Shown: positions 7,520-26,414, counted from the first letter of the stretch. The stretch: DNA of 64,000 nucleotides from a virus (IMGVR_UViG_3300042539_001740), one strand, 5' to 3'. A program made the numbers and translations. The notes: generated by a model not told the origin, from the sequence alone.

Positions 7520-8485
7520 ATGAGTCAATCAATAACAATTAGTAGTATAAATTATAGTGGGGAACAAACAAGTATTGTGTTTACACCACAAGGGACTACT
7601 AATGTGTTTAACTTGGGGGTTCAAACTCTACCTTACACATTTTCATCAAATACATTGACACCTCCACAAGAGATTTATGGGACTTATAGTATTTTATCAT
7701 TGAGTGGTGATTGTTTGAGTATTTTGAATGTACCAAGGCCAACACCAACCCCAACACCTACTATTACACCTACAAGGACTCAAACTCCAACTCCGACATC
7801 TACTGTCACACCAACACCGAGTTATGACCCTTGTAAAGTACCAACTCCGACACCAACAACGACACAAACACTTACACCGACACCAACGATATCTGTTACA
7901 CCAACAGTTACACCAAGTAGAAATCCTTGTGTAACTCCAAGTAAGACACCAACTGCGACACCTACACCTACTAAAACACCACCAACAACGGCAACACCAA
8001 CAGTTACACCTACTATAACACCGACTAATACACCAACGAATACGGTGACACCAACGACTACACCTACTACAACACCAACGGTGACACCTACGATTACACC
8101 AACATCAACTGTGACACCAACACCTTCAGTGAGTCCTTTAGGACCTGAATCACCAAAAATATATTATGGTAAGTTCAGTGGTTCGTCAATTACTTCAGGT
8201 GAAACGAGTGGATTAACTAGTGGTTATACAAGTAATCCTGTTAATAGTGCTGTTGTACTGCCAAGTGGTTCAAGTGGTGATTATGGATATATTTTAATAC
8301 CAACTGGTTTAACACAACCAAGTGAGTTTAGAGATAGTAGTGCGGGATGTTTAGGTAGTTTAATACCATTTAATAACATAGGTACGATAATTATAGTAGA
8401 CGCTAATGGGTTTAGCATAACATACAATGTATATAGGACATTCTTCCCATTTGTTGCAAGTGTGAGTGTGTGGTTATGTCCTTAA
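7520..8485 (+). CDS. Mucin-like Pro/Thr-repeat virion protein
   Basis: About 130 aa of [13 protein letters not shown] repeats between small beta-rich N- and C-terminal domains. Confidence 0.7.
7736..8130 (+). repeat. Degenerate tandem repeats encoding Pro-Thr mucin-like tract
   Basis: Repeated acaccaac/acacctac units; protein [15 protein letters not shown]. Confidence 0.85.
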
Positions 8486-8498
8486 AAATTAAATAATA

Positions 8499-9629
8499 AT
8501 GGGTTCATTTAGTTTATCAGGGGGTGTTGAGGTTTTTGGTTTTATTTCTCCGAGTGATACAACGGATACATATCCGGTGATAGACCCCTTATATGGTATT
8601 GATGGATTAAGAAATGTTGATTTATTAAGTGATTTAAATAACATACCAACTTTGAGAAGAAGAGCTGGTATGGTTGTGGGTATAGGTGGAGGTACGACCT
8701 ATTATAAATTAAACTTACCACCTTGGACAAATACATTATCTGATTGGTCTATTTTTAATTCAGGTGGTGGTAGTGGAACATTTACTGGTGGTACTGTGTC
8801 AGGTGCGACTATTTTTTTGGATGGACTAACAGCAAATACAATAAGTGGAGGAACTTTTTTTGGGGATGGAAGTGGTTTAAGTGGATTGACTGATACATAT
8901 GTGACTGGTGCAACATTTAGTGGAACATCGTTAATCATTTCCCAAAATGAGAATCAACCCAACATAACAGCAACTTTATCATCAATATCATTATCTGGTG
9001 CATTATCTTCAATAACATTCAATATTGTTTCAACAGCAGGAATTTCGGCTTCAACAATATCTGCAACAACATATCAAAATTTACCACGAGATGTTTTTGT
9101 AACTGGCGGTACATTTAGTGGTGGAAGTATTGTTTTTACAAATAATACTGGGGGAACATTCAATGTTTCAGGTATTTCTTCTTTTGATACATTTGTTACT
9201 GGATTTACATATTCTAATAATACATTCACAATATCAAGGAATAGTGGTTCAACTCTAACCGCAAGTATTAATAGTGTCACAGGTTGGACAGTAAATGGTA
9301 ATACAAGTATTACTGGGAATTTAATTGTAACGGGAACATCCGCTTTGAATGGTACTATTTCTTCATCAGGATTGGCTGGTTCAACAGATAGAATGGTTCA
9401 AGTTAATTCAGGTGGTACTATTTCAGCAAGTGCCGATATTATACCAGCATATATAACTTCAGGTGGAACTATTGCCAATTTATTAGATGACACAAATAAT
9501 TGGGATATAAATGGAAATTACATTGGGTCAATTATAACGGGAACATTTCAAGGACAAAAACATTACAATAACAATTATTTTTTTGAAGCAGTTGCTGATA
9601 ATCTCTTTATTAGATTTATTAGAGGATAA
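8499..9629 (+). CDS. Putative tail-fibre/appendage protein
   Basis: Gly/Thr/Ser-rich. N-terminal IPTLRRRAGMVV motif is shared with 17899 (RRKQGMLV), and VTGGTF / TISATTYQNLP modules are shared with 11265 and 17899. Confidence 0.65.
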   Translation: MGSFSLSGGVEVFGFISPSDTTDTYPVIDPLYGIDGLRNVDLLSDLNNIPTLRRRAGMVVGIGGGTTYYKLNLPPWTNTLSDWSIFNSGGGSGTFTGGTVSGATIFLDGLTANTISGGTFFGDGSGLSGLTDTYVTGATFSGTSLIISQNENQPNITATLSSISLSGALSSITFNIVSTAGISASTISATTYQNLPRDVFVTGGTFSGGSIVFTNNTGGTFNVSGISSFDTFVTGFTYSNNTFTISRNSGSTLTASINSVTGWTVNGNTSITGNLIVTGTSALNGTISSSGLAGSTDRMVQVNSGGTISASADIIPAYITSGGTIANLLDDTNNWDINGNYIGSIITGTFQGQKHYNNNYFFEAVADNLFIRFIRG

Positions 9630-10465
9630 TGATTGTAAAATATGGAAATAATGTTACAAGTTTTAATAATAGGTTTCTTAATTTTCAAAGTGTAATTACC
9701 CAACCCTATTTGCAATTAAATACAATTGCCACTTATCTTCGTAATTATATGTCGGATTTTAGAAATCCAAGTTTTTATACATATAGATTGGATGGTACTG
9801 GATTTTACATATTAGATGGAGGTGGTGATATGTTTGACCAAGGAAATATTACAACACCTTGGTTATCAACCGGACTTTCTTATACAGGAAGTGCTGCTTA
9901 TTCACTTGCTGCTTATCCATCTGCAATTACTTATACAAATTCAGCAACAACAATAATTGACACTGATTTTTACTATATTTCATTAGGTTACACACAATAT
10001 ACCACAACTCAAGACCCAACCTATCTCCCTTTAACTATTATAGGTACTAGAAGTAATTCAGGAAAACCTATTGGGTGGCAAATCGGTGGAAATTCAGGTG
10101 CTGATGGTGGTGGTACATTAGCATCAGGATTAATTTATAACGGAACAATTTTAAGTGGATTCACAACATACGCATTTTTTAGGGAAACATATAACACCAC
10201 AGACCCTTCACATTGTAATTTATACATTTTATTGGGACATAGTAATTGGGGTTCCGTATTTGGTAATGCAATTAATTATGCGGCACAACCAGTTAATTTG
10301 GGTGGTTGTGGTGGATTTCTATATACATCAGGTGCAACGACATCAAACATATTATCAATACAAACTTTATTAAGTAAAAATAATGGGGTATTAGTTACAT
10401 CAGGAGAATGTCAAACTGTGGTTCAAAACTTTGTGATAAGAATAAAAGAAGCATTAAACTATTAA
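9629..10465 (+). CDS. Putative virion appendage protein
   Basis: 278 aa, beta-rich, translationally coupled within the fibre locus. Confidence 0.6.
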   Translation: MIVKYGNNVTSFNNRFLNFQSVITQPYLQLNTIATYLRNYMSDFRNPSFYTYRLDGTGFYILDGGGDMFDQGNITTPWLSTGLSYTGSAAYSLAAYPSAITYTNSATTIIDTDFYYISLGYTQYTTTQDPTYLPLTIIGTRSNSGKPIGWQIGGNSGADGGGTLASGLIYNGTILSGFTTYAFFRETYNTTDPSHCNLYILLGHSNWGSVFGNAINYAAQPVNLGGCGGFLYTSGATTSNILSIQTLLSKNNGVLVTSGECQTVVQNFVIRIKEALNY

Positions 10466-10466
10466 T

Positions 10467-11249
10467 ATGATTATTACACACGAAGGTAAAATTGTTGATT
10501 TGGGTGGAGTACCAGTCGTGTTAGGTGTTGATGTACCACCAACACCTTCGATTACTCCAACTATAACACCAACATTAACTATTACACCTACACCAACACC
10601 AACTAGTGGTGCAACATCAGCATTAAGGTTATTGATTTTAGGTGATGCTCAAGTATCAACAGTGTCAGGACAAGTTTCAAATGAAATTGTTTCCCTTGGT
10701 TATCCAACACCAACAATTTCAGCTGTAACAATTTCAACAACCTATAGTGGTACTGGTTTAAGTTCAAGTAGTTGGGATGTTGTGTTGTACTACACCAACT
10801 CTTCACAAACTGGTGCCGTTACCTTGAACACTTCTTTGAGGAACTATGTTGATAGTGGTGGTAATTTAGTTGTTGGAACATTTATTTGGAATCTTAGGCC
10901 AATAGGTTTTGATTTTACCTTAACACCTTATGTTGGTACTGTGAATCAAAGTAGTGACTCAACTGGTAATATGACAGTAACAATAGTACATCCAATAACA
11001 ACAGGTGTGGGGACTGGTTTAACAACTAATAGTACAGTACAAAATAATTTGGTAACAACTTTACAAAGTGGTGCAAATACAATTGCTACATATACAACAT
11101 CAGGATATCCAATAATTGGTATTAATACAGTTGGAACAGCAAGATTAGTTGGTATTAACCTTTATTTCCCATCATATATTGCAACTCGTGCTAATTTAAG
11201 AAGATTAGTTACAAATGCTGTACTATGGGCGGGTAAAGTTTTGAATTAA
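10467..11249 (+). CDS. PT-linker protein with class-I GATase/ThuA-like C-terminal fold
   Basis: PPTPSITPTITPT linker, then LLILGD...WDVVLYY...LRNYVDSGGNLVV...LVTNAVLWA. Confidence 0.55.
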   Translation: MIITHEGKIVDLGGVPVVLGVDVPPTPSITPTITPTLTITPTPTPTSGATSALRLLILGDAQVSTVSGQVSNEIVSLGYPTPTISAVTISTTYSGTGLSSSSWDVVLYYTNSSQTGAVTLNTSLRNYVDSGGNLVVGTFIWNLRPIGFDFTLTPYVGTVNQSSDSTGNMTVTIVHPITTGVGTGLTTNSTVQNNLVTTLQSGANTIATYTTSGYPIIGINTVGTARLVGINLYFPSYIATRANLRRLVTNAVLWAGKVLN

Positions 11250-11264
11250 CAATATTTATAAAGT

Positions 11265-13289
11265 ATGAGTGCAACACCTAATGTAAGAGGAGAAAAAATT
11301 TTTGGTTCAATAACTGGTATTACCTTATTTTCGGCAACGACAATAAGTGGTGGAACTTTATATGGTGATGGTAGTAACTTAACTGGAATTGTTGGTGGTT
11401 CAGGTACTTCAATAACTGGAGGTACATTTTCAAATGGAAATTTAACACTAAATAATAGTACTGGTGGTACAATTGTTATTTCAGGTTCTGCCCCATATAA
11501 TGCAGGTTTGATAACAAATGCAACAGGATGGACTGATAATAATAATGGAACTCTAACTTTACCTCAAGTTACCGTTGCATTATACAATAATTCAAATTTC
11601 ATTGAACCATTAAAAGTTTATATAGTTCCAAGTGGGACAACTGGAAGTGGTGGAATACCAAGTTTATTTGATGAAGACACAAGTTATGTGGTTATTGAAT
11701 ATAATGGAGGTAGTCCAAGATATTATGTTTATGATAATGATTCTGTAATCACCGATAGTGATGTTGTGTTATTTATGATAACCTACAGAAGTGGTAATTT
11801 TGTGCATGTTTTAGAATTTGATAACTATGGAGCAGGATTACCAAATAAGATAAATGATAGAATTTTATCAACTGATAGATTTGCAAGAGAATCAGGATTT
11901 TCATTGGGCTTGAGTGGTTCGACTGGTGTCGTTACATTATCTGCAGGTGTTGCATGGAATGGGGTCTATCGTCAAGCATTACCCCAACTTAATTCTCAAG
12001 ATGATATATTTTTTCAAAGTTTTCATAGTGGTGGAACTTGGGTTTATACAACAACTGCTAATACTCTGAATAACGAATATTATGACGATGGTACAGATAA
12101 GGTTTTGGCTACAGCTGGTAAGTATTTGGTGAATTGGTATTTCAGGGGGCAAGAAGTGAATGACCACTTATATGAAGTTTGGGGTAATGATGAATATGAT
12201 AGTGTTGCAGAAGCTCAATTATCAGTAGAACCAAGTTTACCCGAATTAGTTACATCTCATGCCTTCTTAACAGGAAGAATAATTGTACAAGTTAGTGCAA
12301 CAACTGGTTCAGTTGAGAGTGCTTTCGTTAGTGTATTTCAATCAACACAAGTTACCGCACATAACGATTTAAATGCAATTCAAGGAGGTAGTGCTGGAGA
12401 ATATTTTCACTTAACTTCAACACAATATTCAAACAATGCTTACACAAATGTTGATAATATTTTTTCAGTTGGTCAGACAATTAATGGTGGTGTAACCGCA
12501 ACAACCTACTATGGTAGTGGTGCAAACTTATCAGGTTTGACTGATGTATTTGTAACTGGGGGAACATATTCAAACGGAGATATTTTATTTAGAAATAATA
12601 CTGGTGGAACATTTAATGTAAGTGGACTTACTCAAGGTACTTTAACAGGTACTGGTGTTACGAATTATTTAGCTAAATGGAATGGTGTTAACGAATTAAT
12701 TGATAGTCAAATTATTGATGATGGTACTGATATAACTTTTGGTGGGAATAGTGTAACTTTTACGGCAGATGTTAATATCAGTGGTACTACAATTATTGAT
12801 GATGATGTTATCATTTACAACGGATTAACCGCAAGTACAATCTCTGCAACCACTTATCAGAATTTACCAACGGATGTTTTTGTTACAGGTGGAACTTATT
12901 CAAATGGTACAACAACATTCACAAATAACACAGGAGGTACATTCAATGTATCAGGATTTTTTACTGGTTATACTAATGTCGTTAATTCTTTAACAACTGG
13001 TGTAGGTCTGTCTGCAAATACAACATCAGGTAATGTAACAATTATTAATACAGCACCTGACCAAACTATAACATTAAGTGGTGGAACTGGTATTACAACA
13101 GGTGGGACTTATCCAAACTTTACCATTACCAATTCATTACCAGACCAAACTGTGACATTAAGTGGTGGTACAAATATATCTGTAACAGGTACTTATCCAA
13201 ATTTCGATATCAGTTTTACAGGTTCAACAACATCAACATTTGATTATGGAAAAACTTACGCAATATCAAATAGTTATCAATTAATATAA
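11265..13289 (+). CDS. Putative tail-fibre protein
   Basis: 674 aa Thr/Gly-rich. Contains two VFVTGGTYSNG..F.NNTGGTFNVSG modules and tandem PDQT.TLSGGT.I..TGTYPNF repeats. Confidence 0.65.
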   Translation: MSATPNVRGEKIFGSITGITLFSATTISGGTLYGDGSNLTGIVGGSGTSITGGTFSNGNLTLNNSTGGTIVISGSAPYNAGLITNATGWTDNNNGTLTLPQVTVALYNNSNFIEPLKVYIVPSGTTGSGGIPSLFDEDTSYVVIEYNGGSPRYYVYDNDSVITDSDVVLFMITYRSGNFVHVLEFDNYGAGLPNKINDRILSTDRFARESGFSLGLSGSTGVVTLSAGVAWNGVYRQALPQLNSQDDIFFQSFHSGGTWVYTTTANTLNNEYYDDGTDKVLATAGKYLVNWYFRGQEVNDHLYEVWGNDEYDSVAEAQLSVEPSLPELVTSHAFLTGRIIVQVSATTGSVESAFVSVFQSTQVTAHNDLNAIQGGSAGEYFHLTSTQYSNNAYTNVDNIFSVGQTINGGVTATTYYGSGANLSGLTDVFVTGGTYSNGDILFRNNTGGTFNVSGLTQGTLTGTGVTNYLAKWNGVNELIDSQIIDDGTDITFGGNSVTFTADVNISGTTIIDDDVIIYNGLTASTISATTYQNLPTDVFVTGGTYSNGTTTFTNNTGGTFNVSGFFTGYTNVVNSLTTGVGLSANTTSGNVTIINTAPDQTITLSGGTGITTGGTYPNFTITNSLPDQTVTLSGGTNISVTGTYPNFDISFTGSTTSTFDYGKTYAISNSYQLI

Positions 13290-13301
13290 AAATATAAAAA
13301 T

Positions 13302-13721: not shown

Positions 13722-13732
13722 AAAAATTAATT

Positions 13733-13906: not shown

Positions 13907-13916
13907 ATAATAATTT

Positions 13917-14816
13917 ATGATTGATTATAATAACCTCCCCAATTTAGACAATAGTGTTGCTATATTTTACGCTATTGGTTCGAGTACTTGGCAAACTTGG
14001 CAAAAACCAAGGGGTTGTAAGTTTGTATATATGCTCGTCATCGGTGGTGGGGCTGGAGGTGGTGGAGGTCAATCAGGTACTGGTGTCGGAAGAACTGGTG
14101 GTGGTGGAGGTGGGTCTTCGGGTATGAACAAAGGTATGTTTATGGCTAATACACTACCTGATATTGTATACATCAATGTTGGTTATGGTGGGGCTGGTGG
14201 AACACCAAATAGTAACGGAAGTGCTGGTAGTATTTCATATGTATCAGTTTTACCTGATACTACAAGTGTGAATGTTTTACTATATAGTAATTCCACCACA
14301 CCTGGTGGAGGTGCTGCTGCAGGTACTCTTGGAGGTACTGGTGGTGCACCTACAGCGGCAAATCAAATCTTGGGTTATTCAGGTGTCAATTTATTTGGTG
14401 CAGGTCAAAATGGTACAAGTGGTGGGTCTAATGCAGGAGGTAATGGTACGGCTTTAGCACCAACTTCTCCATTATGTGGTGGGTCTGGTGGAGGTGGGTC
14501 AAGTGCCGCAAACGCAAATGGAACTGGTGGTAATGTGAATACAGGTGGTGTTTTTCCTACATTATCAGGTGGAGCAGCGGGTGGCACAAATAGAGGAACT
14601 GATGGATTTACAGGTTCTTTTCCAAATAAATCAAATGTTTTAAGAAACGCCTTTATTTTTACTGGTGGTTCGGGTGGGGGAGCAAATGGTGCTGGTATAG
14701 GGGGTGATGGTGGTAATGGAGCTTTCGGTTGTGGAGGTGGTGGTGGAGGTGCTGGGACTACTGGTGGTTCAGGTGGAAGAGGTGGTGATGGTTTAGTAAT
14801 AATTATATCTTGGTAA
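13917..14816 (+). CDS. Glycine-rich domain protein (polyglycine-II bundle, putative adhesin), paralog 1
   Basis: WQTWQKPRGCKFVYMLVIGGGAGGGGG ... GGRGGDGLVIIISW, a Gly_rich_2/ALK-GR-like architecture. Confidence 0.7.
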   Translation: MIDYNNLPNLDNSVAIFYAIGSSTWQTWQKPRGCKFVYMLVIGGGAGGGGGQSGTGVGRTGGGGGGSSGMNKGMFMANTLPDIVYINVGYGGAGGTPNSNGSAGSISYVSVLPDTTSVNVLLYSNSTTPGGGAAAGTLGGTGGAPTAANQILGYSGVNLFGAGQNGTSGGSNAGGNGTALAPTSPLCGGSGGGGSSAANANGTGGNVNTGGVFPTLSGGAAGGTNRGTDGFTGSFPNKSNVLRNAFIFTGGSGGGANGAGIGGDGGNGAFGCGGGGGGAGTTGGSGGRGGDGLVIIISW

Positions 14817-14817
14817 T

Positions 14818-15708
14818 ATGTTAGATTTATTTCATTTAGCCGATACAACTTATAATACTCAAGTATTTTATAGAACAGGCCCTTGGGAAACTTGGATTAA
14901 ACCTAAAGGTTGTAAATTCATACACTTCTTTGTATTAGGAGGTGGTGCTGGTGGTGCTGGTGGATTGACAGGTATTGCCGGAACTAATAGAAATGGTGGT
15001 GGTGGAGGTGGTAGTAGTGCCCTAACAACACTATTAATTCCCGCTTTTTTTGTCCCTGAAAGATTACATATTTTAATAGGTCCAGGTGGTGCTGGTGGGG
15101 CTGCGTCATCGAATGGTACTGCGGGAACTGTTACTTATGTTGGAATAAATAATGTTACAACATTTGTCCAAAATCATCTAATTATTAGTAGCTCGAGTAA
15201 TAATACCGGTGGGAATTCAAATGCTGCTGCAGGTACTGGTAATAATCCTAATACCGTAGCTAATAGTGTATTGATGGGTATGGGTATTTTTAATTCTATC
15301 GGTGGTGTTAATGGTTCTGTTGGGGGTTCTTTTGGAGCAGGAACAAATATTACAATATCAAGACCAACAACTGGTGGTGCAGGTGGTGGGGGTTTAACTA
15401 CAGCTAATGTTCAAGCCGTTGGTGGTAATATAACTGGAGCAGGGTTTATCCCCACGATAAGTGGTGGAGCTGTTGGTGGATTTAATGGTGGTGCGGGATT
15501 TAATCAATTTAATCCCTCATCGATACTATCAAGTTCTTCACCTTTATTTTTTACAGGTGGTGCTGGTGGTGGTTCGAATGCAAGTGGTACTGGTGGTAAT
15601 GGTGGAGATGGTGGATGGGGTTGTGGCGGAGGTGGTGGAGGGGGTGGACTCACTGGTGGAAGAGGGGGTAGAGGTGGCGATGGTTTAGTAATAATAACTT
15701 GTTGGTAA
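14818..15708 (+). CDS. Glycine-rich domain protein, paralog 2
   Basis: WETWIKPKGCKFIHFFVLGGGAGG ... GGRGGDGLVIITCW. Confidence 0.7.
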   Translation: MLDLFHLADTTYNTQVFYRTGPWETWIKPKGCKFIHFFVLGGGAGGAGGLTGIAGTNRNGGGGGGSSALTTLLIPAFFVPERLHILIGPGGAGGAASSNGTAGTVTYVGINNVTTFVQNHLIISSSSNNTGGNSNAAAGTGNNPNTVANSVLMGMGIFNSIGGVNGSVGGSFGAGTNITISRPTTGGAGGGGLTTANVQAVGGNITGAGFIPTISGGAVGGFNGGAGFNQFNPSSILSSSSPLFFTGGAGGGSNASGTGGNGGDGGWGCGGGGGGGGLTGGRGGRGGDGLVIITCW

Positions 15709-15712
15709 TAAT

Positions 15713-16633
15713 ATGATAGATAATTTTAATTTACCTAATAATGATAAGAATGTTCAATCATTCTATGGGATAGGTTCGGCTGTTTGGCAAACTTGGCAAA
15801 AACCGAATGGTTGTAAGTTTATGCAAATGATTGTCATCGGTGGAGGTGGAGGAGGTGGTGCGGGTGCTACAAGTATTGCTGGTAGTGCTAGGTCAGGTGG
15901 TGCTGGTGGTGGTGCTTCGGCAATAAGTCGAGCTTTTGGTACACTTTCAACTATTCCTGATACACTTTATATTTTAGTTGGTATGGGGGGTACTGGTGGG
16001 TTACCTACGGCAGGAGCTGGAGGTAATGGTACTGTAGGTACTTTATCGTATGTTAGTGTACAACCAAATACAACAACATCAAATATAATTTTAGCAAGTG
16101 GAGCTGCCGCAGCAGGGGCAGGTAATGGTGGAGCTGTCGGTAGTTCTAATGCTACCGCAGGTAGTGCTGGTACAGTATTTCTTCAGACCGCAGGATTTCT
16201 TAGTTATAATTTTTTGGTATCTTTGATAGCTGGACAATTAGGGGGAAGTGGAGGTAACCAAAATCAATCAGGTACTGCAGTATCTTTGACTAATATCGTT
16301 TCAGGTGGTGCAGGTGGAGCTGGTGTATCAACAACTTCTCGTGTTGGTGCGAATGTAACAGGTTCAGGATTTGTCTCAACAATAAACGGAGGTAATCCAA
16401 CCAACCCATCTGAAGCTGATAGCGGATTCTCATCATATAATGAGCAATTAATCAATATGCCATATAATTTGTTTTTCACAGGTGGTGCTGGAGGATACGC
16501 TAATAATACTACCGCTGGAGGTATTGGAGGAAATGGTGCGTATGGTTCAGGTGGTGGAGGTGGTGGTGCTGGAACTACTGGAGGAAGAGGTGGAAATGGA
16601 GGGGATGGTTTAGTTATAATAACTTGTTGGTAA
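15713..16633 (+). CDS. Glycine-rich domain protein, paralog 3
   Basis: WQTWQKPNGCKFMQMIVIGGGGGGG ... GGNGGDGLVIITCW. Confidence 0.7.
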   Translation: MIDNFNLPNNDKNVQSFYGIGSAVWQTWQKPNGCKFMQMIVIGGGGGGGAGATSIAGSARSGGAGGGASAISRAFGTLSTIPDTLYILVGMGGTGGLPTAGAGGNGTVGTLSYVSVQPNTTTSNIILASGAAAAGAGNGGAVGSSNATAGSAGTVFLQTAGFLSYNFLVSLIAGQLGGSGGNQNQSGTAVSLTNIVSGGAGGAGVSTTSRVGANVTGSGFVSTINGGNPTNPSEADSGFSSYNEQLINMPYNLFFTGGAGGYANNTTAGGIGGNGAYGSGGGGGGAGTTGGRGGNGGDGLVIITCW

Positions 16634-16645
16634 TATTTATCCTAT

Positions 16646-17899
16646 ATGCCACATCAAATAAGTATATCAGCAACAACTGGGACACCCCCATATCAAGTCA
16701 TAGTTTGTGATGTAACATTAATCTATTGTTATACACTAACTGGCTCAACATCATTATCGGCAACAACAACTTTTGATATTCCATCACCTTTAGATGTTGC
16801 GGATAGTATAATTATTAAAGTTATTGATAGTAACGGATGTGAAACATTTTTACCATATAGTTGTCCTGTAACACCGACACCTACTCCAACAATTACACCT
16901 ACACCAAGTTCGACACCAACTGATTTATGTAGATGTATTCAAATAACGAATACTGGAACAACTGGTGGAACTTTTTATTATACACAATGTGATGGAACAA
17001 TTACAAGTGTATTACCAATCAACTCAGGTACAACATTATATTATTGTGGTAGTAATCCAATTGCTTTGACTGAATGTGATATTTTTATTGGTGATGTTTG
17101 TGTAAACAATAGTTGTGTTGCAATCACACCTACACCAACACCAACGATTTCATTAACCCCAAGTGTAACACCAAGTATAACACCAACAATAAGTGTAACA
17201 CCAACAATTTCAGTAACTCCGAGTATAACACCTACAATAAGTGTAACACCAACTATAACACCAACAATAACTCCAACAATAAGTGTAACACCAAGTATTA
17301 CACCATCTGTTACACCAACATCATCTCCATTACCTTCAACATTTGCTTATTTGTTTATTGAACCAATAAGTGCCGCAACAAGTATTGGTAACTATATGTT
17401 TGGTAATGGAGCTCCACAATTCTTTGGTTTCAGTAATACAAGTCAACCAAGTTCAAGTGCAACGACATTTAATACTGAGATGAACTTGTATGTTAATTAT
17501 AGTGGTTGGACAAATGGTGAATTACCAACGATTATAACATCCAATGTACCACAAACAACTGGTGGTGTAGATAGTTTCGGTAATACAAAAATAGCATACA
17601 ATTTTGAAACGACAGAAATACTTCAAAATACAATATTAGACCAAGCTTGGTACACTTGGATTATACCAATTGTTTTAACAAATAATCAATCTCAATTAGA
17701 TATTGATTTAAGTTTAGGTAATCCGAATGTATTTAGTAATGTGTTAACAGAATCAACAATTAGAACAAATACATTTACATATACTGGTTCAACAATACCA
17801 TCAGTAACTTATAGGGTATATACAACATATCCAGCTGGTGATTTCTTAATAGATAATCAAACGACAGATATATATTTTAAAGGAGGTAGTGTAGGCTAA
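16646..17899 (+). CDS. Mucin-like Pro/Thr/Ser-repeat virion protein with Cys-containing small domains
   Basis: Two PT tracts ([19 protein letters not shown]; [17 protein letters not shown] repeats) separating globular domains. Confidence 0.7.
   Translation: MPHQISISATTGTPPYQVIVCDVTLIYCYTLTGSTSLSATTTFDIPSPLDVADSIIIKVIDSNGCETFLPYSCPVTPTPTPTITPTPSSTPTDLCRCIQITNTGTTGGTFYYTQCDGTITSVLPINSGTTLYYCGSNPIALTECDIFIGDVCVNNSCVAITPTPTPTISLTPSVTPSITPTISVTPTISVTPSITPTISVTPTITPTITPTISVTPSITPSVTPTSSPLPSTFAYLFIEPISAATSIGNYMFGNGAPQFFGFSNTSQPSSSATTFNTEMNLYVNYSGWTNGELPTIITSNVPQTTGGVDSFGNTKIAYNFETTEILQNTILDQAWYTWIIPIVLTNNQSQLDIDLSLGNPNVFSNVLTESTIRTNTFTYTGSTIPSVTYRVYTTYPAGDFLIDNQTTDIYFKGGSVG
17122..17322 (+). repeat. 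Tandem repeats encoding TPS(V/I)TPTISV mucin-like tract
   Basis: Repeated aagtgtaacacc/aacacc units. Confidence 0.85.
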
Positions 17900-20800
17900 T
17901 GAGTTTTCCATATAAAAATCCAATAAGTCCTAATCAATTATTGGGACAACAAAGTTTAGAAAGAACAAAAACATTTGGGACTAGTTACTCAACTTTGTCC
18001 ACTGGTGGTTATATGGAAGTATATTCTTTAGACCAACTATATTACACAATCCCGCCATCCACATTCGGACCAATTGAGTTTAGTGGAAATAGTATTCCAA
18101 TCACATTTTCAAAAGGTAGTGGTACAACATTTTCCTATGATACATTAACTTTACAACCTGACAATATTTCTTCGGGTAGAAGAAAACAAGGTATGTTGGT
18201 TTATGTAAAAGAAGTTGACCAAGTTTATCAATATTCAATTAATAACTACGAAACCCTTTGGAACAATGCAACTGGTTCTACTGGTACAACAATAATATCA
18301 GACTTTGGTACGACCATAAGGGCTAACTCACCTGAAAATATAACTTTCATTAATAGTTGGACAGCAAATACTATTGATGGGGTTGGTGGTGTAACACGAG
18401 CTAATGCTGTATGGAAAAAATATCACGGAACTAATTTAGCTATAACTGGTGGTTCTTATAATTCTATCACGAACACATTGACATTAACAAACATAACTGG
18501 GGGCACTCAAAATATCACTGGTTTTGGAGGTGGAGGTGGTGGGGGTGCTACAATCACTGGTGGTACTTTTGACAAGAACACTGAGACATTAACTTTAAGT
18601 TCTTCAGGTGGTAGTATATTCATTACAGGTTTTACTGATGTTTATACAACTGGTGGTACTTTTGATAATGGTGCAAAATCTTTAGAGTTATATGATAATA
18701 GTGGAAATACTATTACTATAACTGGATTTACATCTGTAACAGGTTTAACAGGTGCTGGAGCTTATGGAAGTTTTTCAGATACAACTAACCAACCAGTTAG
18801 TGGTGCTAATATAGAAACAGTTTGGACATATAACACAACCGAGATTTCCAATGGTATATATATATCAGGTGGTTCAAAAATTAGGGTATCACAATATGGA
18901 ATTTATAGTATAGGATATTCGGGTCAAATTGAAAAAACACAAGGTGGTACTGCAACCGATGTTACAATATGGGCAAAAATAAATGGAAATAATGTGGACA
19001 GAAGTTCATCAACAACTACATTAGTTTCTAACTCCGCATATATACTCCCATTTGTTTCGTACATATTTGAACTATATCCTAATGACTATTTGGAATTTTA
19101 TTTTTCAGCTCCAAGTCAATATGTACAACTAACAACATTATCAGGATTAACTTCACCAACAAGACCAGATTCTCCTTCAGTAATTATTGTTGCACAATCT
19201 GTGTTAGGAACTACCGCAACATTTACTGGTAATACTTCAGCAACTTGTATTACTGACTTGTATGTTGAAAATCTATATGGTTGTTCACCAATTAATGTTA
19301 ATGATTTATTAATTGGAAATTCAGGAATAACAACATCAAGTTTAACAGGTACAACTATTAGAAATAACTTTATTGTTGATAGTGGGAACACAATCACGAT
19401 AAAAAACTCAAATAGACAATTGATGGATACTTCAGGTGTCGTGTCTGTTGATTGGTCAAATAGAACTATTAACGATAGTGGAAACAACATATCAATAGAT
19501 TGGGAAAATAGAAAAGCAAAAGATACTTTAGGTAATAATTCTATCGATTGGGAGAGTAAAGGTTTAATCGATTCTACAAATACAAACTCAGTCGGCTGGG
19601 ATTCAAGAAGAGCATATGATAGTTTGGGTGGAACTAGTTTAGATTGGGAATCTAAGGATTTATATGATTCATCTTCAGTAATTTCGTTAAACTATAACTC
19701 AAGAACTTTAACTGACTCAGGGTCAAATATACTTTTGGATTGGCAAAATGGTATTGCTGATTTAAGTAGTTTATATTCAACAAATATTTCTGCAAATACA
19801 ATATCAGCAACAACTTATCAGAATCTACCAACAGAAGTTTTTGTAACTGGTGCAACTTATTCTAATAATACAATTACTTTCACCAATAATACTGGAGGTA
19901 CTTTCAATGTTTTATTTAACACCTTTACTGGTGCTACGATTAATGGTAATTTAAGTGTAACTGGTTCAACTTCTTCATCTTCATTTAGTGGAAGTAGTGA
20001 TACAATAACTGGCAGTAAAGGTAGTGTAATCACAAGTGGTAGTTCTACAACCGCGTTTATTAATGTTTCAGGTAGTAATACAGTTGGGGGTACTGGATAT
20101 ACTGACTTCATAAGAGTTACAAATACCGCAGCAGGAGCTACAAATATAAACAAAACAATTCGTGTTAACAATAATGGTCGTTTAGAGTTTTTGAATAGTG
20201 CATATACCTTCCAAACATTAAACTTGTCAGATAATGGAATTCTTAGTGTTGGTGGGGATAATTTTGCAGGGACATCATCAAGTGATGGCGTATCAAATTA
20301 CTTACAATTTGGTAATAATGCCTCCCAAATCTATGATGATGGTAATTTTCACATTCATAGTAGGTCTGCTGGGCAATCAATGTGGATTAACACTAATGGT
20401 GGACAATTAAATCTATTAACTCAAGCACCACTTGCTGGTGCCAGTATAGGTTCAGGTATTGCTATTGCAACTACATCATTGAATGGTTATGTAACTATCA
20501 ACACTGGTAGAACTGTTACTACGGCCGCAGCTTATGGATTTTTGACCACGGGTGGTGCTGGTACTTACCCAGGTGGTTCTCAGTCAGTATCCATTTCATT
20601 ATATGCAAACAATCGTATTTGGGGTCAAGAAATAGATGCGTTCTCAGATGAGAGAATGAAGGACATACAAGGTGAAATAACTTTAGAAGAAGGAGTTAAA
20701 TTGGTGAATAATTTAATACCAATTAAATACACTTGGAAAGAAGGTGATGATAAAGATATAAAAGCTGGTTACTCGGCACAACAAGTGTCAAAGGCGGGAT

Positions 20801-20997
20801 TTGACCACCTAATCAGTTTAATACCAAAAGAAGGTTTAGAAGAAACAATAGATGAGGATGGATTTTTAAGTCCAAAAGATACACAATTTTCGATGAATTA
20901 TGACCAAGTAACACCATATCACGGAATTGTTATTAAACATTTATTGGAAGAAATTGAAAACCTTAAAAAAGAGATTGAGAGTTTAAAGAATAAATAA
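17899..20997 (+). CDS. Long tail fibre with C-terminal intramolecular chaperone (Peptidase_S74)
   Basis: FSDERMKDI cleavage motif, PIKYTWK, GYSAQQV, MNYDQVTP and a terminal coiled coil. Internal BclA-C/C1q-like segment (AYGSF...GIYSIGYSGQI) and VTGGT modules. Confidence 0.85.
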   Translation: MSFPYKNPISPNQLLGQQSLERTKTFGTSYSTLSTGGYMEVYSLDQLYYTIPPSTFGPIEFSGNSIPITFSKGSGTTFSYDTLTLQPDNISSGRRKQGMLVYVKEVDQVYQYSINNYETLWNNATGSTGTTIISDFGTTIRANSPENITFINSWTANTIDGVGGVTRANAVWKKYHGTNLAITGGSYNSITNTLTLTNITGGTQNITGFGGGGGGGATITGGTFDKNTETLTLSSSGGSIFITGFTDVYTTGGTFDNGAKSLELYDNSGNTITITGFTSVTGLTGAGAYGSFSDTTNQPVSGANIETVWTYNTTEISNGIYISGGSKIRVSQYGIYSIGYSGQIEKTQGGTATDVTIWAKINGNNVDRSSSTTTLVSNSAYILPFVSYIFELYPNDYLEFYFSAPSQYVQLTTLSGLTSPTRPDSPSVIIVAQSVLGTTATFTGNTSATCITDLYVENLYGCSPINVNDLLIGNSGITTSSLTGTTIRNNFIVDSGNTITIKNSNRQLMDTSGVVSVDWSNRTINDSGNNISIDWENRKAKDTLGNNSIDWESKGLIDSTNTNSVGWDSRRAYDSLGGTSLDWESKDLYDSSSVISLNYNSRTLTDSGSNILLDWQNGIADLSSLYSTNISANTISATTYQNLPTEVFVTGATYSNNTITFTNNTGGTFNVLFNTFTGATINGNLSVTGSTSSSSFSGSSDTITGSKGSVITSGSSTTAFINVSGSNTVGGTGYTDFIRVTNTAAGATNINKTIRVNNNGRLEFLNSAYTFQTLNLSDNGILSVGGDNFAGTSSSDGVSNYLQFGNNASQIYDDGNFHIHSRSAGQSMWINTNGGQLNLLTQAPLAGASIGSGIAIATTSLNGYVTINTGRTVTTAAAYGFLTTGGAGTYPGGSQSVSISLYANNRIWGQEIDAFSDERMKDIQGEITLEEGVKLVNNLIPIKYTWKEGDDKDIKAGYSAQQVSKAGFDHLISLIPKEGLEETIDEDGFLSPKDTQFSMNYDQVTPYHGIVIKHLLEEIENLKKEIESLKNK
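19426..19752 (+). repeat. Seven ~15-16-aa tandem repeats (D-S-x-G-x-x-S-(I/V/L)-D-W-x-x-R) in the fibre
   Basis: SVDWSNR, SIDWENR, SIDWESK, SVGWDSR, SLDWESK, SLNYNSR, LLDWQNG. Confidence 0.85.
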
Positions 20998-21052
20998 TTT
21001 AATTAAATCTATTCTTTCCATCCAATTTTTATATTTTTTGTATAAAAATTCA

Positions 21053-22303
21053 ATGTCAACTATATTCGTACAAATAGCGGCCTTTAGAGACCCCCAACTT
21101 AATCCCACCTTACAAGATATGATTTTCAAAGCCAAGTATCCTGAGAACTTGAGGGTTGGTATTTGTAATCAATATAATGAAGAAGATAATTTCAATTTAG
21201 ATGAATACAGAAATGATGATAGATTTAGAATCATTGATGTGTTAGATAAGGAATCATTGGGTGTATGTTGGGCAAGACATAGTGTGCAACAATTATATTC
21301 AGGTGAAACATATACATTACAGATTGATTCTCATATGAGATTTGAACAAGATTGGGATGTTACCTTAATTGATATGATTAATAGTTTACAGTTAAGTGGT
21401 TACAGTAAACCATTGTTAACTGGTTATGTATCTTCATTTGACCCAGATAATGACCCTGAAGGTAGAGTGAATGAACCTTGGAGAATGACCTTTGATAGAT
21501 TTATACCTGAAGGTGCTGTATTCTTTTTACCTGAAGTTATACCAGGATGGCAAGAACTAACAAGTCCAATTCCCGCAAGATTTTATTCAGCTCATTTCTG
21601 TTTTACATTAGGTGAGTTTAGTAATGAAGTTCAACATGACCCTGAATACTATTTCCACGGAGAAGAAATTAGTGTTGGTGTTAGAGCATTCACTCACGGA
21701 TATGATTTATTCCATCCACATAGAGTTGTTATTTGGCACGAGTATACCAGAAAAGGTAGAACGAAACAATGGGATGTTGATAAGGTTTGGTTTAAGAAGA
21801 ATGAAAAATCACACGCAAGAAATAGAAGATTGTTTGGTATGGATGGTGAAATATTTAACCCTGAAGAGTTTGGTAAATACGGATTTGGTACTGAAAGAAC
21901 TTTAGAAGATTATGAGAAATACGCAGGTATTAAGTTTAATAAAAGAGGAGTACAAAAATATACAACAGATAAATACTATCCACCAAATCCATATAATTTT
22001 GAGACAGAGGAAGATTATTTAAATAGTTTTGCGAGCGTGTTCAAACATTGTATTGATGTTGGATTTACATCTGTACCTGAAAAAGATTATGATTTTTGGG
22101 TTGTAGCATTCCACGACTCAAAAGATGAAACGATGTTTAGACAAGATGCTGACATTAATGAAATAAACAGAGTAATGCAAGACCCTGATGGATATTGTAA
22201 GATATGGAGAGAGTTTAATACGATTCAAAAACCAGCATATTGGGTTGTATGGCCACATTCAAAATCAAAAGGGTGGTGTGATAGATTAACTGGTAATTTG
22301 TAA
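21053..22303 (+). CDS. GT60/Gnt-like (Skp1-hydroxyproline / polypeptide) alpha-GlcNAc transferase with extra C-terminal domain
   Basis: IFVQIAAFRDP, LRVGIC.Q, GVCWARH..QQLY.GE.Y.LQIDSHMRF (DxH motif) and FHGEE match the GlcNAc-transferase family (PF11397-like). ATG at 21053 preferred over the TTG at 21038. Confidence 0.85.
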   Translation: MSTIFVQIAAFRDPQLNPTLQDMIFKAKYPENLRVGICNQYNEEDNFNLDEYRNDDRFRIIDVLDKESLGVCWARHSVQQLYSGETYTLQIDSHMRFEQDWDVTLIDMINSLQLSGYSKPLLTGYVSSFDPDNDPEGRVNEPWRMTFDRFIPEGAVFFLPEVIPGWQELTSPIPARFYSAHFCFTLGEFSNEVQHDPEYYFHGEEISVGVRAFTHGYDLFHPHRVVIWHEYTRKGRTKQWDVDKVWFKKNEKSHARNRRLFGMDGEIFNPEEFGKYGFGTERTLEDYEKYAGIKFNKRGVQKYTTDKYYPPNPYNFETEEDYLNSFASVFKHCIDVGFTSVPEKDYDFWVVAFHDSKDETMFRQDADINEINRVMQDPDGYCKIWREFNTIQKPAYWVVWPHSKSKGWCDRLTGNL

Positions 22304-22304
22304 A

Positions 22305-22997
22305 ATGTTTGATATTCGTAAGGTAAAAAAAATAGTAATAAACTTAGAAAGGAGACCCGATAGATTAAAGTTATTCAAAGACGAAATGGATTTTATTGGT
22401 TGGGAGTATGATATTTTTAAGGCGATTGATTATGGTAGTTATTTAGGTTGTGCTTACTCTCACTTAAAAATATTAGAGGACTTCTTAGCTACTGATGAGA
22501 AATACATTATGATATTTGAGGACGATTGTTATTTTATGCCTTATGTAAAAGAACAATTGGAAAAATCACTATTTGAGTTGAGTGAAGTAGATTGGGATTA
22601 TTTTCATTTAGGACCTAGTATAAATTGTCCTGTTAATAATTTCTCCAACCATTTACTAAATCTTAGTGAATTACCAAAACAAGAAGAACACCATAGGGGA
22701 ATCTATAATACTGTTTGTTATATTATTAATAGGAAGTTTGCTCAGATGGCTATAATATGGAATGAAAAAAATCAAAAAGCTATTGACCAATATTATTATG
22801 AAGACATTTTTAAAGAACTAAAGTGTTTCGCCCCATCTTTACCTTTAGTAACTCAAAGAGTGGGGTTCTCTGATATCAATAAAACCACCGATAACAATCA
22901 TTATTTAATAACTTACAACTGGAACTTGTATACTAAGAACAAATTAGATATACAATATTACGATATAAATTATTGTGAAAACCTGAAATACTCATAA
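22305..22997 (+). CDS. GT25-family glycosyltransferase
   Basis: VINLERRPDRL, GCAYSHL and IFEDD motifs. Confidence 0.8.
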   Translation: MFDIRKVKKIVINLERRPDRLKLFKDEMDFIGWEYDIFKAIDYGSYLGCAYSHLKILEDFLATDEKYIMIFEDDCYFMPYVKEQLEKSLFELSEVDWDYFHLGPSINCPVNNFSNHLLNLSELPKQEEHHRGIYNTVCYIINRKFAQMAIIWNEKNQKAIDQYYYEDIFKELKCFAPSLPLVTQRVGFSDINKTTDNNHYLITYNWNLYTKNKLDIQYYDINYCENLKYS

Positions 22998-22998
22998 T

Positions 22999-23877
22999 AT
23001 GAAAACATTATTCCTAACTTGTATATACAATAACTTATTTGGTACTGAGTTTGGTGGTAGACCTAGTAGAGAAGAACATTATAAATATAGCTTGTTATCA
23101 CTATTGAGAATGACAAGTGCCGATTTTATTTGTTATACAAATCCAAGTGATTTGTCAAATCTGGAACATTTTTTTCATAATCAAAATGGAATATCAAAAG
23201 ATAAATTAAAATTCATTCCTTTCAAACTAAAGGATACAAAACATCATCATATTTTTTCGAAGTACAAAGACATTGATACGATAAAGAATGGTGATAGATG
23301 TTTTGAAATTCAGTACAATAAGTTTTTTTGGTTTTTCAATGAAACGTTAAGTTACGACAACTATTATTGGATAGATGCAGGTCTAAGTCATTGTGGTATT
23401 ATTCCCGACAAGTATTTGGTGAACAATAACACTTATCAAAGATATTTTAATTCTTACTTTTTTGATGACACCTTTTTAGATAGGTTAATTGAAAAATCGA
23501 AGGACAAGATTTTAGTAATTGGTAAATCTAATACTGGCTCAAATTTTTGGTCGAATACTTTACCCAATGAATATTATATAGAATACGATAGTTCGTATCA
23601 TATAATTGGTGGTTTATTTGGTGGAACAAAAAAAGTTATGAAAAAATTTGTTGAGGAGTTTGAAAGGATTTTCTTGTGGGTTACTGAAAAAGAAAAAAAA
23701 CTATATTCTGAGGAACAAATTATGACCACAATCTTTATGAATAATAAAGAATGGTTTAATTTATTTTCATTCGATGTTTGGTGGCACGAAAACAATTTAA
23801 CACCTGATTGTCCATCAAATTATTTAACAATTAACAAAAGTTTTTATAAAAGTTTGGAGGATATAAAAGGTGAATAA
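22999..23877 (+). CDS. HtrL/WlaTC-like glycosyltransferase
   Basis: YYWIDAG, IIGGLFGG and SEEQIM motifs; paralogous to the N-terminal half of the next ORF. Confidence 0.65.
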   Translation: MKTLFLTCIYNNLFGTEFGGRPSREEHYKYSLLSLLRMTSADFICYTNPSDLSNLEHFFHNQNGISKDKLKFIPFKLKDTKHHHIFSKYKDIDTIKNGDRCFEIQYNKFFWFFNETLSYDNYYWIDAGLSHCGIIPDKYLVNNNTYQRYFNSYFFDDTFLDRLIEKSKDKILVIGKSNTGSNFWSNTLPNEYYIEYDSSYHIIGGLFGGTKKVMKKFVEEFERIFLWVTEKEKKLYSEEQIMTTIFMNNKEWFNLFSFDVWWHENNLTPDCPSNYLTINKSFYKSLEDIKGE

Positions 23878-25543
23878 TTTAACATTAGTAACAGGATTAT
23901 GGGATATAGGTAGAGACCAATTAACTGAAGGTTGGTCAAGAACATACCAACACTATTTAGATAAGTTTGAAAGTTTACTCAAATTAGATGTAAACTTAAT
24001 AATATTTGGTGATACCGACTTACAAAGATTTGTAGAACAAAGAAGAGATTCACATAACACACAATTCATAATAAGACCAAAAGATTGGTTCATTAATAAT
24101 GAGTTCTATCCAAAGATACAAAAGATTAGGCAAGACCCAAGTTGGTACAATCAAGTTGGTTGGTTAAAAGATTCAACCCAAGCAAAACTTGAAATGTATA
24201 ATCCTTTGGTTATGTCCAAAATGTTCTTACTAAATGATGCAAGAATATTGGATAAGTTTAACTCAGATTATATGTTTTGGATTGATGCTGGTATTACAAA
24301 CACAATTCATCCTGGTTATTTTACCCACGATAAAGTATTAGACAAATTACCCAAATATGTAGATAGATTCCATTTCGTTTGTTTCCCTTATGAAACAAGT
24401 ACAGAGATTCACGGATTTGAAATAAATGCGATGAATAATTACACCAAAACAAAAACAAACAGAGTTGCAAGGGGTGGTTTCTTTGGTGGAAAAAAAGAAA
24501 GAATCAATGATATGAACTCATTGTATTATATGTTACTTAATGATTCATTATCAAAAGGATTTATGGGCACTGAAGAATCCATATTCACAATAATGACTTA
24601 TCTATATCCCCAACATATCAACTATTCAATGATAGAGGGTAATGGATTGATGGGTAAGTTTTTTGAGGATTTGAAGAACGACACATTGGAAGTATTAAAT
24701 GAAACACCTGAACCAATCAAATATCAAAGTAATGATATATCTAAGGTGGGTTTATATGTTATCACATTCAACTCACCAAAACAATTTGAGACCTTAATAA
24801 AATCAATGTTAGAATATGATAGGGATTTTATAACCAAACCAAGAAAGTTTTTGTTGGATAACTCAACAGATTTATCAACAACACCAAGATATAAAGAATT
24901 GTGTGAACAATATGGATTTGAACATATAAAGAAAGATAATATTGGCATAATGGGGGGTAGGATATTTGTTGCCGAACATTTTAATGATACCGATTTAGAT
25001 TTCTACTGGTTTTGGGAAGATGATATGTTTTTCTATCCAAAGAATGAAACTTGTAAAAATGGATTTAATAGATATGTAATCAACTTATATCAAAAAAGTT
25101 TAGAGATTATTCAAAAAGAAAAGTTCGATTTTCTTAAACTAAATTATACGGAGTTTTATGGTGACAATGGAACACAGTGGGCGTGGTACAATGTACCCCA
25201 AGATTTTAGACAAAAACATTGGCCAAACAATCCAAAACTTCCACAGATGGGATTAGACCCAAATGCACCTAAAACAAAGTTTGAATTCATCAGTACTCAT
25301 AAAGGTGTACCATATGTAGGTGGAGAAATCTACCTATCAAATTGGCCAATCGTTTTAAGTAAAGAAGGTAATTATAAATGTTATTTGGAAACAAAATGGG
25401 CTCACCCATTCGAACAGACCCTCATGTCGTATTGTTACCAAGAAACAATAAAAGGGAAAATTAAACCTGGTTTATTGTTGTTAACCCCCACCGAGCACAA
25501 TAGGTTCGACCATTACGATTCAAAATTGAGAAAAGAAAATTAA
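23870..25543 (+). CDS. Bifunctional HtrL/WlaTC-like + GT-A (GT2-like) glycosyltransferase
   Basis: N-terminal TLVTGLWDIGR, YNPLVMSK, FWIDAG, GGFFGG, TEESIF; C-terminal LYVITFNS...FWEDDMFF. Confidence 0.7.
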   Translation: MNNLTLVTGLWDIGRDQLTEGWSRTYQHYLDKFESLLKLDVNLIIFGDTDLQRFVEQRRDSHNTQFIIRPKDWFINNEFYPKIQKIRQDPSWYNQVGWLKDSTQAKLEMYNPLVMSKMFLLNDARILDKFNSDYMFWIDAGITNTIHPGYFTHDKVLDKLPKYVDRFHFVCFPYETSTEIHGFEINAMNNYTKTKTNRVARGGFFGGKKERINDMNSLYYMLLNDSLSKGFMGTEESIFTIMTYLYPQHINYSMIEGNGLMGKFFEDLKNDTLEVLNETPEPIKYQSNDISKVGLYVITFNSPKQFETLIKSMLEYDRDFITKPRKFLLDNSTDLSTTPRYKELCEQYGFEHIKKDNIGIMGGRIFVAEHFNDTDLDFYWFWEDDMFFYPKNETCKNGFNRYVINLYQKSLEIIQKEKFDFLKLNYTEFYGDNGTQWAWYNVPQDFRQKHWPNNPKLPQMGLDPNAPKTKFEFISTHKGVPYVGGEIYLSNWPIVLSKEGNYKCYLETKWAHPFEQTLMSYCYQETIKGKIKPGLLLLTPTEHNRFDHYDSKLRKEN

Positions 25544-26381: not shown

Positions 26382-26387
26382 ACAAAT

Positions 26388-26414
26388 ATAAATACCATAC
26401 AAAAGAGTATTTAT
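26388..26414. promoter_or_regulatory. Back-to-back TATTTAT motifs (ATAAATA-N13-TATTTAT)
   Basis: ataaata 26388-26394 and tatttat 26408-26414 between divergent genes. Confidence 0.6.

Follow-up and report, generated by a model that had tools for sequence, protein, structure and literature searches.

A candidate phage-encoded pathway for O-glycosylation of proline/threonine tracts on the virion appendages of an uncultured myophage

Sixteen genes lie in a nearly gapless run on the plus strand, from 5352 to 25543, of a 64,000-nucleotide (nt) stretch of viral DNA (the window; IMGVR_UViG_3300042539_001740). The first 12 form an appendage block, four members of which carry proline/threonine (PT) tracts, and the last four encode glycosyltransferases (GTs), beginning with a GT60 enzyme. 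The original prediction for this locus held that the phage uses these enzymes to O-glycosylate its own fibres, and that reading is weighed here. The window, with a guanine-cytosine (GC) content of about 31%, corresponds to the minus strand of an IMG/VR virus record of 194.5 kb, which CheckV rates as 66% complete. It encodes a tail sheath gene, and the virus is therefore a myovirus; it is a member of an abundant family of uncultured myophages with genomes of roughly 300 kb. A megablast search of window positions 5000-29000 against isolated phages gave no match. The genes of the run are as follows.

5352..7502, plus strand: Cys-rich appendage-locus protein of 716 amino acids (aa) with a PT tract at residues 347-386; weak match to phrog_8510, virion structural protein
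7520..8485, plus strand: protein of 321 aa whose PT tract (residues 66-214, 149 aa) is rich in TPT(V/I)TPT
8499-9629, 9629-10465, 11265-13289 and 13302-13721, plus strand: fibre-repeat proteins
10467-11249, plus strand: 260-aa protein with an N-terminal PT tract at residues 21-50
13917..16633, plus strand: three tandem glycine-rich paralogues (Gly_rich_2, PF21722, E = 2.8e-07)
16646..17899, plus strand: 417-aa protein with three PT tracts (residues 66-98, 157-183 and 191-235)
17899..20997, plus strand: tail fibre or spike of 1032 aa with a C-terminal S74 intramolecular chaperone domain (PF13884, E = 2.6e-06)
21053..22303, plus strand: GT60 polypeptide-N-acetylhexosamine (HexNAc)-transferase-like enzyme, 416 aa (PF11397)
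22305..22997, plus strand: GT25 glycosyltransferase (PF01755, E = 4.7e-15, 56.4 bits against a cut-off of 24)
22999..23877, plus strand: HtrL-like putative glycosyltransferase (by motif, ESM-Atlas neighbours and homology to ORF332 of the jumbo phage XacN1)
23870..25543, plus strand: double GT-A enzyme (HtrL+GT-A), in which residues 3-257 are HtrL_YibB and about 293-545 another GT-A domain

The fibre genes run into the GT60 gene on the same strand, across a 55-nt gap with no terminator-like site on that strand. From GT60 to the last GT, the first two junctions measure 2 nt each and the third is an overlap of 8 nt, so that the GT25, HtrL-like and HtrL+GT-A genes do follow GT60 in the tight run originally described. 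In all four GTs, the Kyte-Doolittle mean is at most 0.9 for every 19-residue segment. Because of this low maximum, we assign no transmembrane helix or signal peptide to any of them, in agreement with the earlier claim, and take all four to be soluble.

The first gene after the appendage block had been described as encoding a GT60/Gnt-like enzyme with a DxH motif, and its profile match to PF11397 bears this out (E = 1.1e-70, 239 bits against a cut-off of 21; 197.6 bits in a six-frame search of the genome). Because its homologues are 414-416 aa long, translation most likely begins at ATG 21053, the start implied earlier, and not at TTG 21038. When 45 homologues are aligned, E204, E205 and H229 do not vary at all and D92-S93-H94 hardly varies, which gives the enzyme both the DxH motif and the downstream His of a GT-A Mn2+ site. 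The AlphaFold2 model made from that alignment has a predicted local distance difference test (pLDDT) score of 96. In the model, residues 1 to about 320 appear as a GT-A catalytic domain, and an extra C-terminal beta domain is predicted at about 325-416, past the region aligned with Gnt1 (query residues 3-323). Gnt1, the Dictyostelium Skp1-hydroxyproline N-acetylglucosamine (GlcNAc) transferase, is the top structural match among reviewed proteins (E = 5e-26). Of the top 50 Foldseek matches in the PDB, 49, including the first 36, are polypeptide N-acetylgalactosamine (GalNAc) transferases (E about 1e-10); a PDB sequence search with GT60 found no solved homologue. GT60 enzymes of Dictyostelium and Trypanosoma cruzi are polypeptide alpha-GlcNAc-transferases that initiate mucin-type O-glycans on Thr-rich tracts (PMC8724618, PMC3769586). 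Thus, the profile and structure search of 21053-25543 that the original prediction called for returned a GT60 polypeptide-HexNAc-transferase-like enzyme together with further GT-A enzymes. We also considered a hydroxyproline acceptor of the Gnt1 type, which is unlikely because a search for PF13640 oxygenase (prolyl hydroxylase) genes in genomes G000 (the window's own) to G003 and in XacN1 found none; for the same reason, Thr or Ser is the preferred acceptor. A complex prediction pairing GT60 with residues 140-199 of the 7520 protein scored 0.00 in a run made without controls, and it counts neither way.

Pro/Thr tracts, with PTVT and PTIT repeats among them, had been reported in four appendage-block proteins (those starting at 5352, 7520, 10467 and 16646), and this was confirmed. 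The tracts are 27-149 residues long and contain 11 PT[IVL]T motifs, with TPT(V/I/L)(T/S)P predominating. Pooled, they are 35% Thr and 25% Pro, compared with 8.7% Thr and 4.3% Pro in the window's proteins overall, and they are dense Thr/Ser/Pro domains of the kind that a mucin-type system would use as acceptors. Two further PT/poly-Thr open reading frames (ORFs) lie beyond the window. The best acceptor candidate is the 7520-8485 protein, whose homologues in relatives have tracts of 50-155 aa. Homologues of the 5352-7502 protein lie upstream of GT60 in 24 related loci, and homologues of the 16646-17899 protein lie immediately upstream of it in 41.

The remaining cassette enzymes differ in how firmly they can be named and how widely they are kept among 80 related IMG/VR loci, which served as our comparison set. 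GT25 belongs to the variable part of the cassette and is found in only 25 of these loci. The 22999-23877 protein has no Pfam match, and its assignment as a putative HtrL-like enzyme draws on three weaker lines: a WIDAG...GGxFGG motif matching the gene that follows (E = 0.055), ESM-Atlas neighbours with PF09612 (score 0.97) and 28% identity to XacN1 ORF332 (E = 8e-27). GT60 has a conserved partner in the double GT-A enzyme, which occurs in 76 of the 80 loci. Residues 3-257 of this partner match HtrL_YibB (PF09612, E = 1.1e-15, 58.5 bits against 24.1), and its model (pLDDT 90) has two GT-A domains separated by a disordered linker. A PDB sequence search with it found no solved homologue, and the enzymes that it matches best in structure have two domains as well: human collagen LH3, mimivirus R699, LARGE1, the chondroitin polymerase K4CP and heparosan synthase 2.

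The last of these matches bear on another way to read the cassette, in which its enzymes either modify a glycoconjugate of the host envelope at the membrane's inner face (intermediates of the lipopolysaccharide [LPS] core, O-antigen or capsule) or produce free polysaccharide, perhaps to block superinfection or to keep progeny from adhering to debris. The double GT-A enzyme resembles the bifunctional polymerases K4CP, heparosan synthase 2 and LARGE1, the names of GT25 and HtrL_YibB come from LPS loci, and XacN1 also has a GT9 heptosyltransferase-like gene close by. However, the double enzyme matches the collagen-glycosylating LH3 and mimivirus R699 at least equally well, and the characterised members of the family of the conserved first enzyme use polypeptide acceptors only. 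The locus contains no membrane protein, flippase, polymerase or lipid-carrier initiating transferase, and the same core is found across very different host envelopes, those of likely Bacteroidota here and of gammaproteobacteria for XacN1. An envelope or free-polysaccharide product is therefore unlikely in our judgment.

Across the 80 related loci, gene order is kept: variable appendage genes, GT60, a variable insert, HtrL+GT-A, a gene with a conserved N-terminus of about 140 aa, and PolB. A PT-tract ORF lies upstream in 47 of the 59 GT60 loci that have at least 5 kb of upstream sequence, and PT ORFs are about 4 times denser upstream of GT60 than downstream. The insert comprises 49 gene clusters, all on the same strand. 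All the families detected in it are glycan related: GT25, GT34, GT10, PLOD-type GT, GT2 and GT77-like enzymes, HAD phosphatases, a nucleotidyltransferase, a carbamoyltransferase and several O-methyltransferases. Some relatives have a fusion of the double GT-A enzyme with TylF or FkbM methyltransferases. Because this variable island contains only glycan-building and tailoring enzymes, the product appears to be a glycan with a diversifying outer part, and the locus, judged from its gene content, looks like a conserved start and core followed by that changing periphery. Linkage of GTs to structural genes, as in phage virion glycosylation, is seen in the 80 loci and in the XacN1 group described below. 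The complete relatives G001 (322 kb) and G003 (291 kb) encode many PT proteins, including very large ones of 3700 aa that bear as many as 16 tracts. GT60 homologues of the window's type abound in metagenomes, where they form >7000 clusters at 90% identity and 4682 clusters at 50% identity (E <= 0.001).

A cassette of the same kind occurs in XacN1, Xoo-sp13, CM1 and RAS14, jumbo phages of Xanthomonas/Stenotrophomonas whose PolB is only about 21-24% identical to that of the window. Identities to the window's proteins in this group are 45-50% for GT60 (48% in XacN1), 28% for the HtrL-like enzyme and 41-44% for HtrL+GT-A (44% in XacN1). The XacN1 cassette, ORF330-334, thus has homologous GT60, HtrL-like and HtrL+GT-A genes in the same order and beside PT-bearing structural genes, on an unrelated backbone and with a carbamoyltransferase in place of GT25. 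The group's order is GT60, carbamoyltransferase, HtrL-like, one more gene and HtrL+GT-A; a GT25 counterpart was sought in XacN1 ORF331 and none was found. Beside the cassette lie genes for the baseplate wedge and ORF325, a 3313-aa protein with a PT tract; ORF384 and ORF232-237 of XacN1 contain long in-frame Pro/Thr-repeat tracts. Purified XacN1 virions show at least two Schiff-positive glycoprotein bands, and the authors proposed phage transferases (ORF334, the GT60) as their makers (PMC5852040). The GT60 family, the other cassette genes and the PT tracts were not recognised in that work (PMC5852040). In a third lineage, represented by a phage contig of 49% GC, a PT protein is encoded two genes upstream of GT60, after tail genes.

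As a matched control, we used the five nearest GT60-less PolB relatives of XacN1 (RsoM2USA, XbC2, Phosso, Vibrio 2.275.O and pEa_SNUABM_47). A (PT)4 DNA pattern matched 2-12 times in each of seven genomes with a long-type GT60 and 0 times in the five control genomes (1.9 Mb in total); the reversed-pattern control gave 0 matches. This contrast of 7/7 with 0/5 gives a Fisher p of about 0.001, for GT60 genomes that represent only two or three independent lineages. The original prediction had proposed co-occurrence and synteny of GT60 with PT genes as a check, and the two are indeed adjacent in three phage lineages, with the GT60-less PolB relatives of XacN1 lacking PT tracts.

The proximity of the cassette to PolB in the window, and to PolB, RNase H and Nudix genes in XacN1, would fit enzymes that glycosylate phage DNA (on hydroxymethylated bases) against restriction, and glycan hypermodification of DNA is known from phages (cited in PMC12619734). 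This idea fares poorly against the rest of the data. Each complete relative (n = 3) has a single thymidylate-synthase-family gene (PF00303), at or near the curated cut-offs for true ThyA equivalogs. Profile searches of G000-G003 found no Tet/JBP gene (PF12851), G000 being 66% complete, and no hydroxymethylase or TET route to DNA glycosylation. The fold is nearest to peptide-modifying GT-A enzymes and not to T4-type DNA glucosyltransferases. We give DNA as the substrate very little credence.

Together, these observations can be arranged into a cytoplasmic protein O-glycosylation pathway, in which the four cassette genes would decorate the phage's own virion appendages during assembly. The soluble GT60 would use UDP-HexNAc (UDP-GlcNAc by family precedent), with Mn2+ held by D92/H94/H229, and would place the first sugar on Thr (or Ser) within the extended Thr-Pro tracts of proteins encoded by the adjoining fibre locus. 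The conserved HtrL-like and double GT-A enzymes would then extend this sugar into a core, and lineage-specific enzymes would finish the glycan: GT25 here, and GT34, GT10, PLOD-type GT, GT2, O-methyltransferases and a carbamoyltransferase in relatives. Glycosylation of virion proteins of some kind is probable. For O-glycosylation by phage enzymes on the PT tracts of virion appendages in particular, the support is circumstantial but convergent, and we judge the question to be evenly poised. We infer that the tracts are the acceptors, that GlcNAc comes first, that the enzymes work in this order and that the phage benefits through protease or adsorption shielding, stiff linkers or adhesion. The roles that the original prediction gave the glycan (stiffening, protection and adhesion) are speculation. 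That prediction is partly supported: it gained from the enzyme families, the fold, the synteny in three lineages, the lack of PT tracts in GT60-less relatives and the XacN1 glycoproteins, and its central claim of sugars on the PT tracts lost ground to PT-bearing phages without GT60 and to short GT60s without PT tracts.

Several findings weigh against this assignment. In an IMG/VR scan for (PT)4, 38 of the 43 PT-bearing records among the matches listed, which are a sample and not a frequency, were without GT60, including five of the six that are near-complete; PT tracts are generic linkers for which GT60 is not required. Five close PolB relatives, taken as a control within the family, have PolB without an adjoining GT cassette, some with PT genes beside it, but they are fragments of 24-91 kb and 8-31% completeness, in which the absence of GT60 counts neither way. 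The 7-versus-0 contrast overstates independence because its lineages are few. The glycan on this phage's own proteins is one that we infer, and the XacN1 glycoprotein bands are unassigned to proteins. This last point, together with the spread of PT tracts without GT60, favours a cassette that, with mycobacteriophages as the precedent, glycosylates virion proteins off the tracts (capsid, tail tube, sheath or glycine-rich proteins) and leaves the tracts as plain linkers. Gnt1 modifies one residue of a folded protein, and the predicted C-terminal beta domain of the phage enzyme could dock onto a folded target. In contrast, all long-type-GT60 genomes tested have PT tracts and their matched GT60-less relatives have none, and the cassette abuts PT-tract genes in three lineages, which makes an off-tract target improbable.

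The family as a whole also complicates the picture. A short GT60 subtype of about 350 aa (L255-L263, on IMG/VR contigs of 7-106 kb) is 27-30% identical to the long type and is without the C-terminal beta domain. It lies among small early-type genes in phages of 70-106 kb, with no PT tracts nearby and another putative GT next to it; one complete genome has a single (PT)3 only. The short subtype probably has a different target, and because it occurs without PT tracts, the GT60 family is not tied to them generally. At a bacterial-looking locus (L130, JGI 3300044655 contig, 14-3117), two adjacent GT60s accompany PqqD (a recognition element of ribosomally synthesized and post-translationally modified peptides [RiPPs]), ScmC and an FkbM methyltransferase. 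The substrates there may be RiPP-like peptides and not fibres, in a GT60-dependent glycosylation of natural products. Moreover, LPS loci gave GT25 and HtrL_YibB their names, and Gnt1, the nearest characterised relative, modifies the hydroxyproline of a folded protein and not Thr tracts. Gnt1 is a cytoplasmic enzyme that modifies a regulator, and with the placement of the short-type phage GT60s among early genes, it lends some support to a GT60 that modifies a host cytoplasmic protein (for takeover or anti-defence), the other transferases extending that glycan. Nevertheless, the long-type gene lies inside the late structural block and shares its orientation, and a hypervariable multi-enzyme glycan island is hard to reconcile with a single regulatory target; we consider a host protein a decidedly poor candidate.

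The proposed appendage pathway can be compared with several known systems. The protist GT60 enzymes (Dictyostelium Gnt2, T. cruzi OGNT2 and the cytoplasmic Gnt1) belong to the same Pfam and CAZy family and share the GT-A fold and the DxH...H arrangement. The phage enzyme is soluble and cytoplasmic, as is Gnt1, and its candidate acceptor tracts are Thr/Pro rich, as are protist mucins. It differs in that it is only 24% identical to Gnt1, it has a C-terminal beta domain of about 90 residues that is missing from Gnt1, and its activity, donor and acceptor are predicted. The animal polypeptide GalNAc-transferases (GT27) are the nearest solved structures and follow the same metal-binding motif logic; identity is only 10-16%, and the phage enzyme is without a ricin-type lectin domain and is neither membrane anchored nor lumenal. 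In mycobacteriophages Che8, Corndog and Myrna, phage GTs O-glycosylate the phages' own virion proteins in the cytoplasm (Freeman et al. 2023, via the account in PMC12619734), and in both systems, compared by description, GTs adjoin structural genes. The mycobacteriophage glycans lie on the C-termini of capsid and tail-tube subunits in phages of actinobacterial hosts, and that account reports no link to GT60 or PT tracts for them (PMC12619734). Giant viruses (chlorovirus capsid glycans, mimivirus fibril glycans and R699) likewise use virus-encoded, multi-enzyme systems with "eukaryote-like" GT families that need neither endoplasmic reticulum nor Golgi to glycosylate surface structures, whereas here a tailed phage of bacteria would use a different initiating enzyme.

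Virion self-glycosylation is thus already known in mycobacteriophages and giant viruses and was suspected by the XacN1 authors. New here are the GT60 identity of the initiator, the conserved three-gene core (GT60, HtrL-like and HtrL+GT-A) and the link of that core, within a phage family that is very abundant, to mucin-like PT tracts and a hypervariable glycan island. To our knowledge, virion glycosylation in tailed phages has been demonstrated only in a few actinobacteriophages, and GT60/GT27 polypeptide glycosyltransferases have so far been regarded as eukaryotic. If the reading is true, self-glycosylated mucin-like fibres would be common among jumbo phages that are highly abundant in metagenomes (>7000 GT60 clusters), with possible consequences for adsorption and host range, for the stability of particles and for their resistance to antibodies or proteases, and there would be a soluble, bacterial-cytoplasm system for O-glycosylating Thr-Pro tracts. 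The reading is also relevant to where these GT60/GT27 enzymes arose. It is already open to testing, since XacN1 is in culture and LC-MS/MS proteomics data for its virions are publicly available (PXD008065/JPST000339).

A broader form of the proposal, which we offer tentatively and with some doubt, is that three distant phage lineages, an abundant uncultured jumbo-phage family among them, run a protist-like mucin-type pathway in the bacterial cytoplasm. In this form, GT60 would carry a phage-specific C-terminal targeting domain and initiate O-glycans on the Thr-Pro tracts of fibres, the double GT-A enzyme would build a core or polymer and the hypervariable island would yield strain-variable mucin-like coats; a second, HPAT-like transferase may serve poly-Thr fibres. 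The candidate for that transferase, a 325-aa protein encoded outside the window (G000:C1:25224-26201, plus strand, equal to L252:5224-6198), has no Pfam match. Some of its ESM-Atlas neighbour clusters carry PF23452 (HPAT, hydroxyproline O-arabinosyltransferase), and it sits between the PT/poly-Thr fibre-like ORFs 20840-22801, 26228-28423 and 29177-31597. Neither Pfam nor 120 close homologues gave it a family, so that the HPAT-like reading comes from ESM-Atlas neighbours only, and these weakly suggest that it may be a second protein O-glycosyltransferase.

Nearby in the same genome (G000:C1:32234-34384, minus strand, equal to L252:12234-14381) is a gene whose 715-aa product contains SprB repeats (PF13573, E = 5.5e-21) and shows weak matches, below the Pfam cut-offs, to Ig-like domains and a Por secretion tail. 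Because of this SprB-repeat protein, the genome hints at a host among the Bacteroidota (gliding bacteria). We also compared the family with the "moraphage" lineage (PMC12619734), which may overlap it: that lineage's four core groups of GTs and the Bacteroidota hosts predicted for it would agree, but DnaK is present in only one of three complete relatives.

Two further genes of the window lie outside the sixteen-gene run.

26428..27180, plus strand: 250-aa appendage-like protein on the far side of the cassette, with a conserved N-terminus of about 140 aa
650..1864, minus strand: further glycosyltransferase (phrog_7162, weak GT-B signal)

Homologues of the 26428-27180 protein keep the N-terminal region of about 140 aa in about 69 of the 80 related loci. 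Their total length ranges from 125 to 1231 aa (L013-L092), with a C-terminus that varies from nothing to >1000 aa and often bears PT tracts. We call the protein appendage-like because of this variable, often PT-bearing C-terminus, and the family looks like an anchor domain with exchangeable distal parts. Within the appendage block, a repeat read directly from the sequence, ATTYQNLP..VFVTGGT.S.....FTNNTGGTFNVSG, is found in the fibre-repeat proteins of 8499-13721 and is common to the 17899 fibre. Over the Gly_rich_2 paralogues at 13917-16633, local GC rises to 43% and GC skew to 0.39, and an antisense Pro-rich ORF at 14405-14848 is most likely a by-product of the Gly codons.

Elsewhere in the GT60 family, proteins P0122-P0134 of the 50%-cluster library are giants (1000-2461 aa) in which between two and four GT60 domains stand in tandem. 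The thyA genes of G003 and G001 (L093 and L095) encode 372 and 411 aa and match the ThyA profile in two pieces, which suggests an insertion (an intein or an extra domain) in these two complete relatives. Homing/HNH endonuclease genes are present in the window at 42048-43604 and 1851-2615 (phrog_3339 and phrog_559), the first directly after the tail sheath gene.

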